64,000 nt of DNA from Terriglobia bacterium. GTDB lineage: Bacteria > Acidobacteriota > Terriglobia > 2-12-FULL-54-10. The notes below the pieces were generated by a model. It did not search any database, was not told the DNA's origin, and saw nothing but the letters and a program-made list of their open reading frames with translations. The first letter of the stretch is position 1. Every line of letters begins with the position of its first letter. The position numbers were made by a program, and so were the translations under genes. Of the stretch, positions 302 through 8,502 are shown piece by piece. Where the stretch lies: contig CAXVYR010000004.1 of NCBI GenBank assembly GCA_963666975.2, positions 1,728,001-1,792,000 of the forward strand. Direction: 5' to 3'.

Positions 302-1750
302 GAGGGTGTCCCATACATAGTTGAAGGTTGAACGGCGGTTCGGCCCGAATCGAATAGAATCGGGCCAAGCCTAAATCCTATAGAAGGAGAACCGCCGAAT
401 GAAGGGAAAATATCACGTTTTGGAACTGGGTTCCAAGGGAGCCGAAGAAACCATCCAGAAGTTTTGCCAAACCAACGGACAGATGCTGTTGCCGGTGGTG
501 GATCTGATCACGGAGGCGCGTCTGGCGGTGGATGAGGTGATTGATCGGGCCGGGCGAGGTTTGATTGAAACGATTCTGAGCATGAGCGCAGAGCAAATCG
601 CGGGGCCAAAGAGTCCCGGGAAGGCGAGCGGAGAGGTGCGCTGGCATGGCCGGCAATTGGGGAGGGTGAAACTGGCCGATCGCCAGCTGCGGGTGGAGCG
701 GCCCCGGCTGCGCCGGAAGGGCGGAGGGGAAGAAGCGGTGCCGGCCTACGAAGCACTGCGGAAAAGCGAGAAGACGGGCGAGGAGATGTTCGAGGCACTG
801 TTGAAAGGGGTTTCGACGCGGAACTACCGCGAGGTGATCCCGGAGATGGCCAACAGCGCTGGGGTGTCGAAGTCTCAGGTGAGCCGGGAAGCGGCCGAGC
901 AAGGAGCGCGGCGGCTGGAAGAACTGTTGGCGCGGCGCTGGGAGGAGGTCGAGATTCTGGTGATTTACCTGGACGGAATGCGGTTCGGCTCCCACCACGT
1001 CATCAGCGCCGTGGGCGTGGACATCGAGGGCCGCAAGCATGTGCTGGGGATTCAACTGGGCGCGACCGAAAACGCCGCTGCGGTGAAAGACCTTCTCACC
1101 CGCCTGCGCCAGCAAGGTTTGCGCACGGATCAGCGCTATCTGTTTGTGATCGACGGCGCCAAAGCGCTCCGCGCGGGGATCGAGGAAGTATTCGGCAGCA
1201 ATCAGCTGGTGCAGCGTTGCCGTACTCATAAGCTGCGCAACGTGGCTGAGCGGTTACCAAAGGGCGACAAAATGCTGGCGAATCAGGTGCGGTCGCTGAT
1301 GCGCGCCGCCTGGCGATTGCCCCAAGCCGAGGAAGGCATCGTGCGCATAAAAAAGCTCGCTGGGATGATCGAGTGCGATCATCCGGCAGCAGCCGCCAGC
1401 TTGCGCGAAGGGTTGGAGGAGACCTTTACGATCAATCGAGCCGACGTTCCTCCCAGCCTCCACCGCTGCCTGGCAACCACGAACCTCATCGAGAGCCCGC
1501 AGTCGGGCGTGCGGAAAAAGACTGGCAATGTTTGCCGCTGGCGCGACGGCGAGATGACGTTGCGCTGGGTGGCAGGAGCGTTTCTGCTGACCGAGAAGAA
1601 TTTCCGGAAGATCATGGGTTATCACGATCTCTGGGCTTTGGCATCGATTCTCGGCCGAAGTCCAAACGCTGCTTCCTCTCACAAGGAGAAAGTGGCGTAA
1701 TATGAACTCAACCCGCCGTCCCAACCTGCAACTGAGTTTGGGACACCTTC
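302..1750 (+). mobile_element. IS256-family insertion sequence, complete
   Basis: TIRs GAGGGTGTCCCATACATAGTTGAAGGTTG / GAAGGTGTCCCAAACTCAGTTGCAGGTTG; 8-bp TSD TGAACTGC at 294-301 and 1751-1758. Confidence 0.95.
399..1700 (+). CDS. IS256-family transposase
   Basis: 433 aa; GVSTR, IYLDG, VIDGAKAL, QRCRTHK and TTNLIES motifs. Confidence 0.95.
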   Translation: MKGKYHVLELGSKGAEETIQKFCQTNGQMLLPVVDLITEARLAVDEVIDRAGRGLIETILSMSAEQIAGPKSPGKASGEVRWHGRQLGRVKLADRQLRVERPRLRRKGGGEEAVPAYEALRKSEKTGEEMFEALLKGVSTRNYREVIPEMANSAGVSKSQVSREAAEQGARRLEELLARRWEEVEILVIYLDGMRFGSHHVISAVGVDIEGRKHVLGIQLGATENAAAVKDLLTRLRQQGLRTDQRYLFVIDGAKALRAGIEEVFGSNQLVQRCRTHKLRNVAERLPKGDKMLANQVRSLMRAAWRLPQAEEGIVRIKKLAGMIECDHPAAAASLREGLEETFTINRADVPPSLHRCLATTNLIESPQSGVRKKTGNVCRWRDGEMTLRWVAGAFLLTEKNFRKIMGYHDLWALASILGRSPNAASSHKEKVA

Positions 1751-2469: not shown

Positions 2470-2538
2470 GCACCGACACAAATCAACGTAGTGCTGAACT
2501 GGTTTGAAGAGCTGAAGCAGCGGGTGCCCGCGCAGTAA
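2470..2538 (+). pseudogene. C-terminal remnant of a Ser/Thr kinase/TolB-like protein
   Basis: APTQINVVLNWFEELKQRVPAQ*, a tail typical of acidobacterial kinases; no upstream body. Confidence 0.65.
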
Positions 2539-2859
2539 TCTGAACCGCGACCGTCACGGAACACACGGGCCACTAATTTGACGCCTTTCTCATAGAAGTG
2601 CCCTTGGCCTTCGTAAGATTGCTGTAAGAAACCGTCGCTTCCACGATCACCCGCGAGTAACGGCGCAGTGTAGAACGAAGTCGCTCACTCAGCGGGTGCC
2701 CGCGCAGTAATCTGAACCGCGACCGTCACGGAACACACGGGCCACTAATTTGACGCCTTTCTCATAGAAGTGCCCTTGGCCTTCGTAAGATTGCTGTAAG
2801 AAACCGTCGCTTCCACGATCACCCGCGAGTAACGGCGCAGTGTAGAACGAAGTCGCTCA
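2518..2859. repeat. Tandem duplication of a 170-bp unit (period 172)
   Basis: 2518-2687 is identical by eye to 2690-2859. Confidence 0.95.
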
Positions 2860-2903
2860 ACTCCAGAATCGTCGCCCATCCGAAAAATATCCCCAAACGG
2901 CGT

Positions 2904-4654: not shown

Positions 4655-4741
4655 TGTGCCCCGTCAGGGCTTGTTGGACAGGTAGAGGGTAATAGTTAAG
4701 GTGATGTTTTTGGCTCATCGTAGAGACTGAAAGGAACGAAG

Positions 4742-5113
4742 ATGAGACAAAAACAAGACGACAGGGGGGCGGTCGAGAAGGCCGTCCGGGAGATCAAACG
4801 CAGGACGCGGCGCAGGTTCAGCCCGGAAGACAAAATCCGCATTGTATTGCAGGGACTTCGCGGCGAGGACAGCATCGCGGAGCTGTGCCGCCGCGAGGGG
4901 CTGCACCAGAACCAGTATTACCGCTGGAGCAAGGAGTTTCTGGAGGCTGGCCGCAAGCGGCTGGCGGGCGACATAGACCGTGAGGCAACCAGTGGCGAAG
5001 TCAAGACTCTGCGGGAGCAGGCCGTACAGCTGAAAGAGGCCCTGGCCGAGGCTATGCTGGAAAATCGCCTGCTAAAAAAAAGCGTGATCGGGGATGGGGA
5101 GGAACATACATGA
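4742..5113 (+). CDS. IS3-family transposase OrfA (HTH)
   Basis: RRFSPEDKIRIVL..IAELCRREG; A-run slippery site near 5074-5082. Confidence 0.9.
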   Translation: MRQKQDDRGAVEKAVREIKRRTRRRFSPEDKIRIVLQGLRGEDSIAELCRREGLHQNQYYRWSKEFLEAGRKRLAGDIDREATSGEVKTLREQAVQLKEALAEAMLENRLLKKSVIGDGEEHT

Positions 5114-6094
5114 GATACCCTGCCTCGGAGAAGCTGGAGATCATCTGCACGGTGGAGCAATCTGCCCTGGGGGTGCGCCGGACGCTGCAGCAGGTTGGCA
5201 TTCCCAGATCGACGTTTTACAACTGGTACGACCGCTATGTGTCGGAAGGCTTTGATGGGCTGGAAGACAAAAAACCCGATCCTGGCCCTGTCTGGAACAA
5301 GGTGCCGGAGGAGATAACTCAGCAGTTGGTGACGTTAGCCCTGGCCGAGCCCGATCTGTCGTCACGCGAGCTGGCGGTGCGTTTTACCGAGGAAAGGCGG
5401 TATTACCTTTCTGAATCGACGGTTTACCGCGTCCTGAAAAGCCATGACCTGATTACCGCGCCAGCCTTTATTGTCCTGAAAGCGGCGGAACGGTTCGCCA
5501 ACCCGACCACGGCGGTCAACCAGCTCTGGCAGACCGACTTCACCTACCTGAAAGTCATCGGTTGGGGCTGGTTCTACCTGTCCACGGTGCTGGACGACTT
5601 CTCGCGCTATATCATCGCCTGGCGGCTGTGCAAAACCATGAGCGCAAGTGACGTCTCGGCCACGTTGCGGGATGCTTTGCAAGCCACCGGCCTCGACCGC
5701 GTGGGCGCCCGGCACAGACCTCGCCTCCTGAGCGACAACGGGCCGTGCTACGTCTCTTCCGAACTGCAATCATGGCTGGCAGAAAACAGCGTGCCGCATA
5801 CTCGCGGCAAGCCCTATCACCCCATGACGCAGGGCAAGATCGAACGCTGGCACCGAACTCTGAAAGACCGCATCCTGCTCAACAACTATTACCTGCCAGA
5901 AGAGCTGGAGCGGCAGATCGATGCCTTCGTCAACCACTACAACACCAACCGATACCATAGAAAGCCTGAACAACCTGACACCGTATGACGTTTTTACAGG
6001 CCAAGGCAGTGCCATCCTGCAAAAACGGGATCGCATCAAAGAGAAAACTATGATCTTAAGAAAACGGTTGCACTTCAAAAGAAGGGCAGCCTAA
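5110..6094 (+). pseudogene. IS3-family transposase OrfB (rve DDE), frameshifted near the C-terminus
   Basis: WQTDFTY, LSDNG and GKIERWHRTLK motifs; an extra A after RYH (~5959), with the natural tail ESLNNLTPYDVF..RRAA* in the next frame. Confidence 0.85.
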
Positions 6095-6167
6095 CATCAA
6101 CCCAGAGGAGCCTGAACGCCACCTTATCTTTTTATGCTCTGTGTCCAACATTATCTGACGACGTACA

Positions 6168-7278
6168 GTCCGGGGGCAGTCGATGTAGTCCAGGAAGGTG
6201 ATGGCCTTGGCAAACCACTCTCTTGAGCGGGTCGCTGAACGATGGCCTTGGCAAACTGCTCGGTTCGGAGCGTTCGGACCACTCTCTTGAGCGGGTCGCT
6301 GAACGAGTACAACTCATTCTCGATGATCTCCCGACGTTTGCCCCAGGCCTCCAGGTGGGTTTGGTTTCGCGTGAAGAGGCCGAACACCTTCAGGACAAGG
6401 TCTCGGATCAGGCGGAGGCGGGCGTAGCGGGCGCTCAGTTCAGCAATGGCCGCCCGCTGGGTCTCACTCAGCTTCTCCTCTCGGCTCAAAAGGACGTAAC
6501 GGAGGCCCCACAGCTTGCGGGAATCCTCTTTAGTGCCCACCTTTCGAGCAAGGACGCCCCGAAGGTCGTTGATGGCGGTCAGGACGTTCTTGGTAATGGC
6601 GCGGGTGTAGTGGAAGATGCAGAGTTGCTGTCTGATCCCCGGCCAAACTTCTTTTGGGACGTTTTGGTAGATAGGTGCACCGTCGGTCACAATGACACTT
6701 GGATGAATCCCCAAGTCTTTAAGGTGTGTCAGGAATTGGCGAAGCTCTTCTTCATTGGCAGTCCGGCACAATCGAACCGAGAGGGTCTTGTCGTTCAGAG
6801 GGTCCGTGGCAACCAGCACTGCGTAATGATCGTAAAGCTCGTCCACCACCAATACGCCGGAGAAGCCTTCCGCCGCCCACCGCTCATAATCTCGCTCCAT
6901 GTCTATCGCATCGGCGGAATCATGGAACCAGCCATACGCTGTCGAGAGTGCGGGGCGGACATGGAAGTCGCGCTCAAGCCGCTTCCGCAAGCCAGCAAAC
7001 GTGGTCTTATCCTCCACCACCGCACTGCGGGCCTTCTCAATGGCCCTTTGGCTGTAGTGTTTCCCCTTTTGGGCCATTGGCGGTTGGAAGCGGAAAAACT
7101 TTTTGCAGGCTTGACAGCGATACACCCCTACCTTAACATTCAATATGGTAGCGCACTCAAGATCAAGGTCTTTGATACGCCTTTCCCGGACCGAGTGCCT
7201 CTTGCACAGCGCCTTACAATTTGGGCACTCGGAACACGGGGGCGCAAACGAATTCGCTGTGGGGTTTCCTTCTGCCAA
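6168..7278 (-). pseudogene. Zinc-finger DDE transposase (ISL3/IS256-like), 3'-truncated and rearranged
   Basis: CPNC, YRCQAC, VVDELYD, IVTDG and QLCIFH motifs; duplicated segments at 6200-6306; cut by the IS at 6167. Confidence 0.75.
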
Positions 7279-7346
7279 GGGGGTTTCTCCGTGTCGATGC
7301 CCTGGAGCCTGTTAGTCGCAGACTCCAGGGGTTACTTGCTAGAAGC

Positions 7347-7455
7347 TGGCGGGCCGGGAGGGGGTCGAACCCTCGACCTTCCGCTTAGCAGGCGGACGCT
7401 CTTGATCCTGGTTTCCCTAGAAGGTCCCGGATCGTTTCCGCTGAGCTACCGGCCC
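7347..7455 (-). tRNA. Atypical tRNA-like gene: anticodon GCT (Ser), short variable loop, ~30-nt hairpin inserted in the D-loop
   Basis: GGGCCGG/CCGGCCC acceptor + G73 + CCA; D stem GCTC/GAGC; anticodon arm TCCGC-CTGCTAA-GCGGA; variable loop AGGTC; T arm GAGGG-TTCGACC-CCCTC. Confidence 0.8.
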
Positions 7456-7532
7456 GTTATCTATCAATCTTTCAATCCATACCTCCTAAACCAAGCGCAC
7501 ATCCGATTAGCGCCTTCAGTCCCTGCTTGTTC

Positions 7533-7557
7533 CTCTGTGCCGTTGAGCTACGGGGCC
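7533..7557 (-). other. tRNA 5'-fragment-like sequence (acceptor strand + D arm only)
   Basis: GGCCCCG TA GCTC AACGGCACA GAG; no anticodon or T arm follows. Confidence 0.45.
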
Positions 7558-7563
7558 ACAAAT

Positions 7564-8091
7564 TCATCTACTGTTCCTCTTTGGCGGTTTAGAAGTCTCA
7601 ATAAAATTTTCTGCGTCTGGCGTCCAAGAAAAATCATCCTCATCCACTTCCTTTACTATTTCCTTGTAGAAGACGTTGAGGCCTTCCCTCCTTATCTCTA
7701 TCTCATCGTTATCTTTCATGCGATTCAAAATCGTATAAATGGAAGACATTGGATTTTCGTAGGGCGACAAGTCCAACCCCCTCTTGGCAAGCTCGTCCCT
7801 AACGTCCTTGGGAGACAGCCATGCCGAGGCGAGCCCCAAAGCTCCGTGTTCCCCCGAAGTCAAAAACACGTGGCGTATCGCATCAGTAAAGCCGAGAGTG
7901 CTCAAATCATCTATGGAAGCGGCCAATCCGCAAAGGGGGAGCATTTTATTGATAACGGCTTTAATGTTTGCAATTTGTTTTTCAATTTCAACTCTCTTGG
8001 CGTCAAGCTCATCGCGCTCATTGTCCAGGCCGCAAAGGCGCACCCTGAGAGTTTCCAACATTTTTGCGGGATTGTACTCTTGATCTGCCAT
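7564..8091 (-). CDS. Hypothetical coiled-coil + winged-HTH-like protein, mobile-element type
   Basis: 175 aa; N-terminal heptads then LSPKDVRDELAKRG..SSIYTILNRM; AT-richer than the host genes. Confidence 0.7.
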   Translation of the reverse strand: MADQEYNPAKMLETLRVRLCGLDNERDELDAKRVEIEKQIANIKAVINKMLPLCGLAASIDDLSTLGFTDAIRHVFLTSGEHGALGLASAWLSPKDVRDELAKRGLDLSPYENPMSSIYTILNRMKDNDEIEIRREGLNVFYKEIVKEVDEDDFSWTPDAENFIETSKPPKRNSR

Positions 8092-8105
8092 GAGGTGAAC
8101 ATAAC

Positions 8106-8303
8106 ATGTCTGTAGACAAAGTCAAGGGGGAAATAAATGCGGACCTAGACACGGATGTGGGTCCATGGGATTCATTGATTGCACAGGCCAAAGAGCAGCG
8201 ACGCCAAGCTAAGGCAAGCATATTAAAATTATCAAAATCCATTGTCTTTTTTGAAAGAAAGAAAAGGGCGGGTGAGCCGTGGCCTGGGTCAACGCACAAT
8301 TAG
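8106..8303 (+). CDS. Small hypothetical protein divergent from 7564-8091
   Basis: 65 aa; GAGGTG RBS upstream. Confidence 0.5.
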   Translation: MSVDKVKGEINADLDTDVGPWDSLIAQAKEQRRQAKASILKLSKSIVFFERKKRAGEPWPGSTHN

Positions 8304-8502
8304 CGGACTACCAGAGAGGACAGAAGTTCTATGCTTGTTTATCATCAACCTTTTCCGAAAAGTCTCCAAAGGAGCGCCTCCTGGGGGCTCTTTCCCCGCC
8401 TGTATACACTCTGTTGAAAGCACTTCCTGGAGTAGTGAACCGCCGGGTTATCCAGGTTATCATGACAAGGGGACGAATACGAAGGCAGATCGGGGGTAAT
8501 GG

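Follow-up and report, generated by a model that had tools for sequence, protein, structure and literature searches.

A tRNA gene of irregular shape, which standard tRNA scanners overlook, is an internal part of a ~3.3-kb ISL3-like insertion sequence (IS) in the genome of a Terriglobia bacterium, and not a stray chromosomal tRNA. It lies in the window, the 64-kb stretch of DNA analyzed here (C4:1728001-1792000, C4 being one contig of a four-contig, 98.9% complete genome of 4.23 Mb and 58% G+C), and combines a GCU anticodon with a short variable loop and a 30-nt hairpin in the D-loop. That it is a real, expressed, IS-borne irregular tRNA is very probable. Regarding its role, we tentatively favor, just short of calling it probable, a transposon-borne tRNA acting in trans, as an arginine-charged missense tRNA reading AGY codons or as a tRNA mimic; the arginine-missense mechanism in particular, predicted from identity nucleotides, is a possibility that we regard with more doubt.

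An irregular tRNA gene within an ISL3-like element

Read directly from the sequence, the gene is a 109-nt cloverleaf running from position 7455 to 7347 of the minus strand. The acceptor stem consists of 7/7 Watson-Crick pairs followed by U8 and A9, the D-stem is GCTC/GAGC with a D-loop that opens on A14 G15 C16, GG and A, the anticodon stem (5/5 paired) carries the loop CTGCTAA with anticodon GCU at 7389-7387, the T-stem (5/5 paired) closes the T-loop TTCGACC, and the 3' end is formed by G73 (7350) and an encoded CCA (together 7350-7347). The acceptor and T-stem are split 7/5, as no pair is possible between T8 and the base that precedes the 3' acceptor strand, and all nucleotides of the core tertiary pairs are intact. 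The variable loop is AGGTC, 5 nt in length; the long (class II) variable arm of canonical tRNA-Ser is absent, and a serine anticodon and G73, as in canonical bacterial tRNA-Ser, are both present. The original prediction, which had described four perfect stems, U8, A14, G18G19, G73 and CCA, a GCU anticodon, the lack of a long variable arm and a 30-nt D-loop hairpin, is thus borne out by the sequence, which also supplies the strand (minus), left unstated there. Folded alone, the hairpin reaches -9.7 kcal/mol. The cloverleaf with its hairpin reaches -43.8 kcal/mol, 2.5 kcal/mol from the minimum free energy of -46.3, compared to a mean of -38.8 (sd 3.9) in 300 mononucleotide shuffles.

Standard scanners miss the gene, as had been anticipated. 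The sole tRNA called by ARAGORN in the 64-kb window is a tRNA-Arg(CCG) located elsewhere, and the same tRNA-Arg(CCG) is the only match of Rfam at its gathering threshold. After in-script removal of the hairpin, ARAGORN called a class-I tRNA(gct) of 76-79 nt in 3/3 versions, compared to 0/1 for the full sequence, a comparison that had been proposed along with the prediction. A permissive Rfam scan returned a local tRNA match below the threshold of 29 bits (E 0.0038) that skips the insert. A 'Pyl(cta)' call from the intron mode of ARAGORN was forced and spurious, and was discarded. When all 4.23 Mb of the genome were scanned with a relaxed acceptor and T-arm pattern, 60 matches fell outside ARAGORN-called tRNAs, among which only the two identical copies of the irregular tRNA are tRNA-like by eye. 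This tRNA-shaped gene with a D-loop hairpin and a GCU anticodon is real and not a one-off pseudo-tRNA; whatever its function, genes of this kind are overlooked by standard tRNA scanners.

Contigs assembled from RNA libraries (three runs, each of a different study), which inform on presence and not on ends, strand or level and leave DNA carry-over uncontrolled, cover the irregular tRNA and its insert (X17, 7340-7509; X19, 7253-7463; X20, 7264-7427), with no joint across the D-loop insert reported in any of the three. The depth of the X17 contig over the tRNA (18.8 vs. 2.5-3.2) is unfit for ranking expression, and those parts of the element that lack RNA-contig cover provide no evidence of silence.

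The irregular tRNA belongs to a repeat spanning positions 6241-8366 of the window. A 441-nt region around it has a 100% identical copy 9.8 kb upstream, where the second, identical copy of the tRNA occupies C4:1725552-1725660, and a third, inverted copy of 95% identity. The full element measures ~3.3 kb, is bounded by 22-nt inverted terminal repeats and occurs in the genome at least three times, and additionally as a fragment. Its left end, seen in other copies, is the inverted match of the right end at 21/22 positions, and the genome contains three ends of each type with differing flanks, a feature of ISL3-family ISs. The mobile-element setting, which was among the possibilities raised beforehand, is confirmed by this location inside a repeated ISL3-like element with inverted ends. 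The repeated IS itself had gone unnoticed in the prediction. The sequence AATTTTGG forms both the right flank of copy A (C4:1726572) and the left flank of inverted copy C (C4:2133216), which would be consistent with a target duplication of 8 bp whose halves were separated when an inversion occurred between these two copies, ~400 kb apart. No copy of the element in the host genome is wholly undisturbed. One is interrupted by a 1449-bp IS just inside its left end, and the third copy (C4:2129470-2130935) by two 1449-bp IS insertions, one of which sits exactly at the CCA end of the tRNA and is accompanied by a 9-bp duplication, CCCGCCAGC.

On the strand of the tRNA, the element is organized in the order promoter-like sites, ORF175 (an open reading frame, ORF), tRNA remnant, irregular tRNA, long hairpin and transposase (Table 1). 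The transposase starts 68 nt past the CCA of the irregular tRNA; a full copy of 418 amino acids was found in locus L001. It matches Pfam DDE_Tnp_ISL3 (PF01610) at 40.3 bits (cut-off 23) and NCBIfam transpos_ISL3 at 72.7 bits, below the cut-off of 180, and has a zinc-ribbon-like region at its N-terminus. Neither ORF175 nor ORF271 belongs to a Pfam or NCBIfam family. ORF175 was aligned with four relatives; its look-alikes in a protein atlas are unnamed and found most often in Acidobacteriota, HARE-HTH being no more than a lead. The tRNA remnant, called by no tool, lies upstream of the irregular tRNA, at a stated distance of 65 nt, and is kept in all three copies of the element. A consensus scan of positions 6900-8450 gave five promoter-like sites, compared to 0.9 +/- 1.1 in shuffled sequences, three of them upstream of ORF175 on the minus strand; it gave no such site between ORF175 and the irregular tRNA, and no terminator-like site. 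Co-transcription of ORF175 and the tRNA fits this distribution, since promoter-like sites occur only upstream of ORF175 and no terminator-like site intervenes.

Table 1. Features of the ISL3-like element and of neighboring ISs, in window positions.
Feature	Position	Strand	Description or basis
Irregular tRNA gene	7347-7455	minus	Sequence reading; ARAGORN call once hairpin removed; local Rfam tRNA match of 27.1 bits
D-loop hairpin (GATCC...GGATC), 30 nt	7404-7433	minus	After G18 G19 A20 (variable 20a/b region), after GG-AAAC
Long hairpin	7300-7330	minus	Between irregular tRNA and transposase start
ISL3-like DDE transposase	6238-7278	minus	Truncated, residues 1-347 of 418; TTG start at 7278-7276
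tRNA remnant	7531-7557	minus	Limited to a 5' acceptor strand and a D-arm; matching 3' strand not seen in the vicinity
ORF175	7564-8091	minus	First gene of the unit; coiled-coil-like N-terminus, winged-helix-like C-terminus
Promoter-like sites	8255-8228, 8125-8098, 8099-8071	minus	Upstream of ORF175; consensus matches only
Right terminal inverted repeat, TCAACCTTTTCCGAAAAGTCTC	8345-8366	plus	Genome contains three copies of the right type and three of the left type
ORF271 (271 amino acids)	within the ~3.3-kb unit	opposite to tRNA	ORF reading
1449-bp IS	302-1750		Repeat search
~1513-bp IS3-type element (rve and HTH domains)	4655-6167		Repeat search

A conserved slot with changing occupants

The transposase defines a small family, with 42 proteins at E <= 0.001 among 5.8 billion. 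Across 41 genomes, the host and 40 among its relatives, only one weak match (E 2e-7) was found outside the host, 39 of the 40 others giving none, and a pattern scan from the single protein found no close relatives in species genomes. Relatives were sampled as 65 metagenome loci recovered by a profile scan of contigs for the transposase. In 8 of these loci (L243, L244, L245, L250, L251, L255, L261 and L283), ARAGORN called an upstream tRNA on the strand of the transposase, and Rfam, run on 13 of the 65, gave tRNA matches in 7. A strict acceptor and T-arm scan, covering the 42 loci with at least 150 nt of upstream DNA, was positive upstream in 6/42, compared to 0/42 on the reverse strand and 0/42 inside the transposase gene. 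The transposases of tRNA-positive loci are 35-63% identical to that of the window.

The nearest relative, L243 (63% identity), shares the terminal repeats, with a 23-nt match at both ends of a ~3.0-kb unit, and has a homologue of ORF175 in the same position (tblastn E 6.8e-7). The 3' end of its tRNA lies 72 nt short of the transposase; this tRNA combines an 8/4 split with a long variable arm, G73-CCA and the loop CTTAGGA (UAG), and scores 51.6 bits with the Rfam tRNA-Sec model (threshold 47). The tRNAs of L244/L245 and L250/L251 combine a G3:U70 pair and A73 with the loop CTTAAAA (UAA), and L252 has a degenerate version of this type; a plain class-I tRNA(GCU) is found upstream in L283, and two irregular tRNAs in L255. 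The anticodon arm of every relative inspected keeps a 7-nt loop, U33 and a purine at position 37. The tRNA slot before the ISL3-like transposase is conserved while its occupant changes. A GC-rich counterpart of the long hairpin was seen by eye, with its conservation unscored, in the gap between the tRNA slot and the transposase in L243, L246, L250 and L252. In L250 and L252 the hairpin is followed by a short T-run, reminiscent of a terminator.

A class-I body with the loop CTGCTAA was also searched as a pattern in contigs representing one genome per species, which yielded at least 114 stretches, 90 of them called by ARAGORN. GCU tRNAs with 16-46 extra bases in the D-loop were found at five loci, and the class-I GCU total is probably not much above 114, because all five were already among these stretches. 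Together with that of the window, the six long-D-loop GCU tRNAs are found in ISL3-like (window), IS1-like (L215) and IS1595 (L229 and L194) settings, among toxin-antitoxin-like genes (L162) and in a setting left unassigned (L158). L194 shares only the start GGAAACG with the D-loop of the irregular tRNA, and tblastn detected no homologues of the proteins of the element near other long-D-loop or GCU tRNAs. Clustering of the ORFs located within 2.5 kb of the 114 stretches revealed IS1595 transposases in 15 loci and IS1-like transposases in 9, the latter always 143-714 nt downstream on the same strand; inverted repeats enclose both tRNA and transposase in 5 of the 14 loci inspected (3 IS1-like, 2 IS1595). 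A class-I body with the GCU anticodon loop was found in 26 viral contigs as well (L308-L333). IS1-like relatives were additionally sampled through the protein, to avoid anticodon bias: 80 loci were kept, 77 had enough upstream DNA, and 5/77 have an upstream same-strand tRNA, with anticodons CGU, UAG, ACU, UAA and GCU. Among 26 IS-linked GCU tRNAs, 96.3% of cells are paired and 16 of 21 pairs show compensatory change, a count reached in 0/500 shuffles. As this set was chosen by pattern and mostly from ARAGORN calls, and any mixture of tRNAs would covary, the count shows only the tRNA shape and the diversity of the 26.

The original prediction had tied the alternative of a one-off pseudo-tRNA to two findings, the lack of homologues retaining the insert and the lack of a transcript. 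One part of it stands, since the insert was met in no homologue beyond the near-identical copies. The other part does not: RNA-library contigs cover the gene, D-loop hairpins occur in five other GCU tRNAs, and relatives keep an irregular tRNA in the slot.

Irregular tRNAs have precedents. Mukai et al. (2017; PMC5389517) described polycistrons of irregular 7/5 and 8/4 tRNAs, allo-tRNAs, and an 'extra-loop' tRNA1 with a GCU anticodon, and suggested links of irregular tRNAs to transposable elements and toxin-antitoxin systems. Going by the brief published description of this E-loop tRNA1, the tRNA of the window would resemble it in being non-canonical, with an additional loop and a GCU anticodon, in lying beside an irregular tRNA sequence and in being found in transcript data. 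An acidobacterial flavor of the irregular tRNAs, suggested in that paper, recurs here in that ORF175 look-alikes are commonest in Acidobacteriota. Compared by text description only, E-loop tRNA1 is 8/4 with U73, whereas the tRNA of the window is 7/5 with G73 and an encoded CCA; moreover, the latter occupies a fixed slot upstream of the transposase in a defined IS, an arrangement not described for the tRNAs of Mukai et al. in the accessible portion of their article. The tRNA of L243 reads as an allo-tRNA in the sense of these authors (8/4 or 9/3 with a long variable arm; PMC5389517), with an anticodon that disagrees with its likely identity. In contrast, the tRNA of the window differs from allo-tRNAs by its 7/5 split, its 5-nt variable loop and the extra hairpin in its D-loop. 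As far as these partial sources go, the tRNA of the window fits a known but loosely defined and poorly understood kind of irregular tRNA, from which it differs by the 7/5 G73-CCA form and the defined IS slot. The available parts of PMC7609411 and PMC7590224 added nothing on D-loop inserts or transposons, and a search of literature listings, outside subscription journals and supplements, yielded no paper that presents a tRNA as a constant part of an IS.

Other comparisons concern the carrier. The element resembles the ISL3 family by its DDE transposase, Pfam ISL3 domain, zinc-ribbon-like region, terminal inverted repeats and suggested 8-bp direct repeat, and departs from it by a score far below the NCBIfam cut-off, a length of ~3.3 kb and three extra parts (ORF175, tRNA and ORF271). 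As with the tRNA genes of phages and other mobile elements, the tRNA is cargo of a selfish element; unlike phage cargo, its carrier is a small DDE insertion sequence, and supplementation of codon usage is not an obvious role because its anticodon and body disagree.

Predicted charging and competing explanations

The body of the irregular tRNA is, by its nucleotide composition at identity positions, Arg-like and not Ser-like. In E. coli, ArgRS reads A20, C35 and U36 or G36 and ignores position 34, bacterial SerRS needs the long variable arm, and AlaRS needs G3:U70; neither AlaRS nor SerRS reads the anticodon. G18G19 is followed by A (position 20) in the irregular tRNA and in 60/89 class-I GCU tRNAs of other bacteria; among host tRNAs, this A is found in Arg (5/5) and Ala (3/3) and in 0/40 others. 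C35 and U36 are present as well. The insert-free core is nearest to the host tRNA-Arg(UCU), at 78% identity, and has all five Arg tRNAs among its top eight matches, with the host tRNA-Ser(GCU) outside the ten nearest. The tRNA of the window shares with bacterial tRNA-Arg(UCU/CCU) its class-I body, a discriminator that is G or A, and A20, C35 and U36. Unlike them, it has G34, which directs it to the serine codons AGC/AGU, and a 30-nt D-loop insert; GCU pairs with no arginine codon. The host possesses 48 ARAGORN-called tRNAs, including an ordinary 94-nt tRNA-Ser(GCU), together with one SerRS-type gene (PF02403) and one ArgRS-type gene (PF00750). A search with PF00750 and PF02403, the only synthetase families searched, found no extra dedicated synthetase. 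By these recognition rules, the tRNA of the window looks chargeable by ArgRS, the G3:U70 tRNAs by AlaRS and the long-arm G73 tRNAs by SerRS, and the tRNA of the window is unlikely to be an ordinary SerRS substrate. Among the options originally put forward, a mischarged missense tRNA reading AGY fits the predicted charging best, given A20, C35, U36 and the proximity to tRNA-Arg(UCU).

Under the explanation that we favor, the irregular tRNA would be co-transcribed from the promoter-like sites upstream of ORF175 and released by RNase P and 3' trimming, as proposed because CCA is encoded. It would adopt an L-shaped fold from which the extra hairpin projects out of the D-loop after A20. As A20, C35, U36 and G73, the set recognized by ArgRS, are present and the long arm required by SerRS is absent, arginine charging or a mimic appears most likely: the product would be either a low-level Ser-to-Arg missense tRNA at AGY codons or an uncharged tRNA mimic acting in trans. 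The same logic may extend further. Combinations of an Arg-type body with GCU or ACU, of a G3:U70/A73 acceptor with UAA, and of a long-arm/G73 body with UAG were observed, and such tRNAs are the ones expected to remain chargeable, given that the anticodon plays no part in recognition by AlaRS and SerRS, nor position 34 in recognition by ArgRS. These would be missense tRNAs rather than mere processing signals because predicted chargeable bodies carry the anticodon of another amino acid, an argument drawn from few cases and general rules. That DDE ISs of at least three unrelated families (ISL3-like, IS1-like and IS1595) spread tRNAs with mismatched anticodon and identity, as mobile missense tRNAs, is a rather unlikely generalization, in which the D-loop hairpin would be tolerated, or serve as insulation, without displacing A20. 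If such tRNAs were charged and used, insertion sequences would be vehicles by which deliberate mistranslation, of Ser as Arg and of Leu as Ala or Ser, is passed on, which, if true, bears on the origin of genetic-code deviations and on the cargo of the smallest mobile elements. A natural tRNA that tolerates a 30-nt D-loop hairpin would also be of interest for the engineering of tagged or orthogonal tRNAs.

Several observations weigh against a trans-acting missense tRNA. The D-loop hairpin adjoins A20 and could block ArgRS. The seven AGY codons of the transposase fall at columns occupied in relatives by Ser, Thr, Cys or variable residues, and AGY has the same substitution profile as TCN among nine IS1-like and 14 IS1595 transposases. 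The extra-loop GCU tRNA1 (U73) was charged by neither the GlyRS nor the ThrRS of E. coli, according to the accessible text of PMC5389517, where ArgRS goes unmentioned. There is no covariation evidence for the D-loop insert, copies A and B being identical, and none of the five other long-D-loop GCU loci has a hairpin of similar sequence. In the third copy, the irregular tRNA has lost its T-stem and suffered a 4-nt deletion in the D-loop hairpin. The possible DNA carry-over in the RNA-library contigs weighs in the same direction. Finally, 72/77 IS1-like relatives and distant ISL3-like relatives lack an upstream tRNA, so that the tRNA is dispensable for transposition, an optional cargo outside the transposition machinery. 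A private genetic code for the element was considered and rejected, as AGY codons of the transposases behave as serine.

The main rivals to a trans-acting role are a cis-acting processing role and a decaying passenger. In the former, which is unlikely, the tRNA shape would serve as a signal for RNase P and 3' processing, together with the downstream hairpin, and the anticodon would be irrelevant; the module would separate the messages of ORF175 and the transposase and set the stability or translation of the transposase mRNA. Placement argues for such a module, as the tRNA is upstream and co-oriented in all eight tRNA-bearing ISL3-like relatives, in all nine IS1-like loci of the GCU pattern and in the five sampled through their transposase; the absence of a promoter-like site between ORF175 and the tRNA, the long hairpin that follows the tRNA in several relatives and the variation of the anticodon among them (UAG, UAA, GCU) point the same way. 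However, RNase P needs only the acceptor and T-arm, and the anticodon arm (7-nt loop, U33, purine 37) and the core tertiary nucleotides are kept although it needs neither; in several IS1595 loci the tRNA is downstream of, or opposite to, the transposase, and most relatives have no tRNA. If the tRNA is unused in translation, a fixed tRNA-shaped slot before a transposase would amount to an undescribed control of transposase expression. A captured tRNA gene or mutated copy of tRNA-Arg, which later received an insertion and is now functionless, is distinctly improbable. The degeneration of the third copy, the tRNA remnant nearby, an insert shared by no homologue, the lack of any undisturbed element copy and the crowding of the genome with ISs would suit such decay; perfect stems, conserved tertiary nucleotides and an intact CCA in two copies would not, nor would the coverage by RNA-library contigs. 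Chance pick-up is also hard to invoke for irregular tRNAs that recur at the same slot in relatives whose transposases are only 41-63% identical.

The remaining alternatives are less probable still. We consider it quite improbable that the tRNA engages a tRNA-cleaving toxin or defense nuclease, as a decoy or as a replacement substrate, or that it is itself the toxic member of an addiction pair formed with ORF175. Irregular and allo-tRNAs near toxin-antitoxin genes, and cell death caused by two of six converted tRNA variants, are reported in the portion of PMC5389517 available; L162 lies beside DUF5343 and a PHD-like antitoxin match, the latter at 22.9 bits and below the Pfam cut-off of 27, and the 26 viral contigs with class-I GCU tRNAs are compatible with this role. 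The element itself, however, contains no toxin, antitoxin or nuclease family (Pfam and NCBIfam; PADLOC not searched), and nothing in it is known to cleave tRNA-Ser(GCU) or tRNA-Arg. That the tRNA is a genuine serine tRNA, in which a D-loop hairpin near 20a/b is read by SerRS in place of the long variable arm, is highly improbable. In tRNA-Ser structures the long variable arm does have D-loop positions 20a/b at its base, the GCU anticodon and G73 would suit serine, and AGY codons of the IS transposases behave as such; yet the body is Arg-like, an extra hairpin is absent from at least 109 of the 114 class-I GCU tRNAs, the discriminators of the six hairpin-bearing GCU tRNAs are mixed (G in the tRNA of the window and in L162, A in the rest), D-loop hairpins also accompany UUC, GAA and CCC anticodons, and the host is equipped with a normal tRNA-Ser(GCU) and a single SerRS. 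An intron-containing tRNA, another of the options first entertained, is close to refuted. Removal of the insert does give a tRNA of canonical length, and archaeal tRNAs have introns at such positions, but the host is bacterial (89-nt tRNA-Tyr, tRNA-SeC and QueG) and its 98.9% complete genome contains no tRNA-splicing endonuclease (tRNA_int_endo) by a search that was positive in four archaeal controls. Furthermore, a group I or II intron would not fit into so short an insert, which is by eye a plain hairpin and not a bulge-helix-bulge, and the three RNA-library contigs run through it unspliced, with no joints reported.

Host genome and D-loop hairpins elsewhere

Near-identical DNA of the region occurs in runs of seven studies, those with a readable label being sponge metagenomes. 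The host genome is crowded with ISs, the 1449-bp and ~1513-bp elements of Table 1 being present in dozens of near-identical copies on all four contigs. A tandem duplication of ~173 bp (99.4% identity) was noted at window positions 2518-2863. A 96-nt 'tRNA-Ser(aga)' called by ARAGORN at C3:934710-934805 is probably a false positive, as its printed sequence is not tRNA-like by eye.

In 18 of the 114 stretches with the GCU pattern, an SPFH/Band 7 gene follows the tRNA-like sequence 380-550 nt downstream in a conserved arrangement. These tRNA-like sequences have a poor acceptor stem and often come directly after another tRNA; the listed examples (L140, L145, L185 and L216) are alphaproteobacterial. 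One further class-I body, in L119, combines the loop CTACTAA (ACU) with a 29-nt D-loop.

D-loop hairpins with other anticodons were encountered in two bacterial orders. In Solirubrobacterales (L010, L014, L017, L021, L031, L052, L080 and ~40 more), a tRNA with the loop CTTTCAA (UUC) has a D-loop hairpin of ~18 nt, which displays compensatory changes between genomes; one such tRNA scores 66.6 bits with the Rfam tRNA model, with a 25-nt insertion. Its body is, we presume, unlike that of the usual tRNA-Glu, and this tRNA appears to be vertically inherited. In Bacteroidales, tRNAs with GAA or CCC anticodons have D-loops of 38-46 nt with hairpins, as in Dysgonomonas (L011), Odoribacter (L041) and Muribaculaceae (L022).

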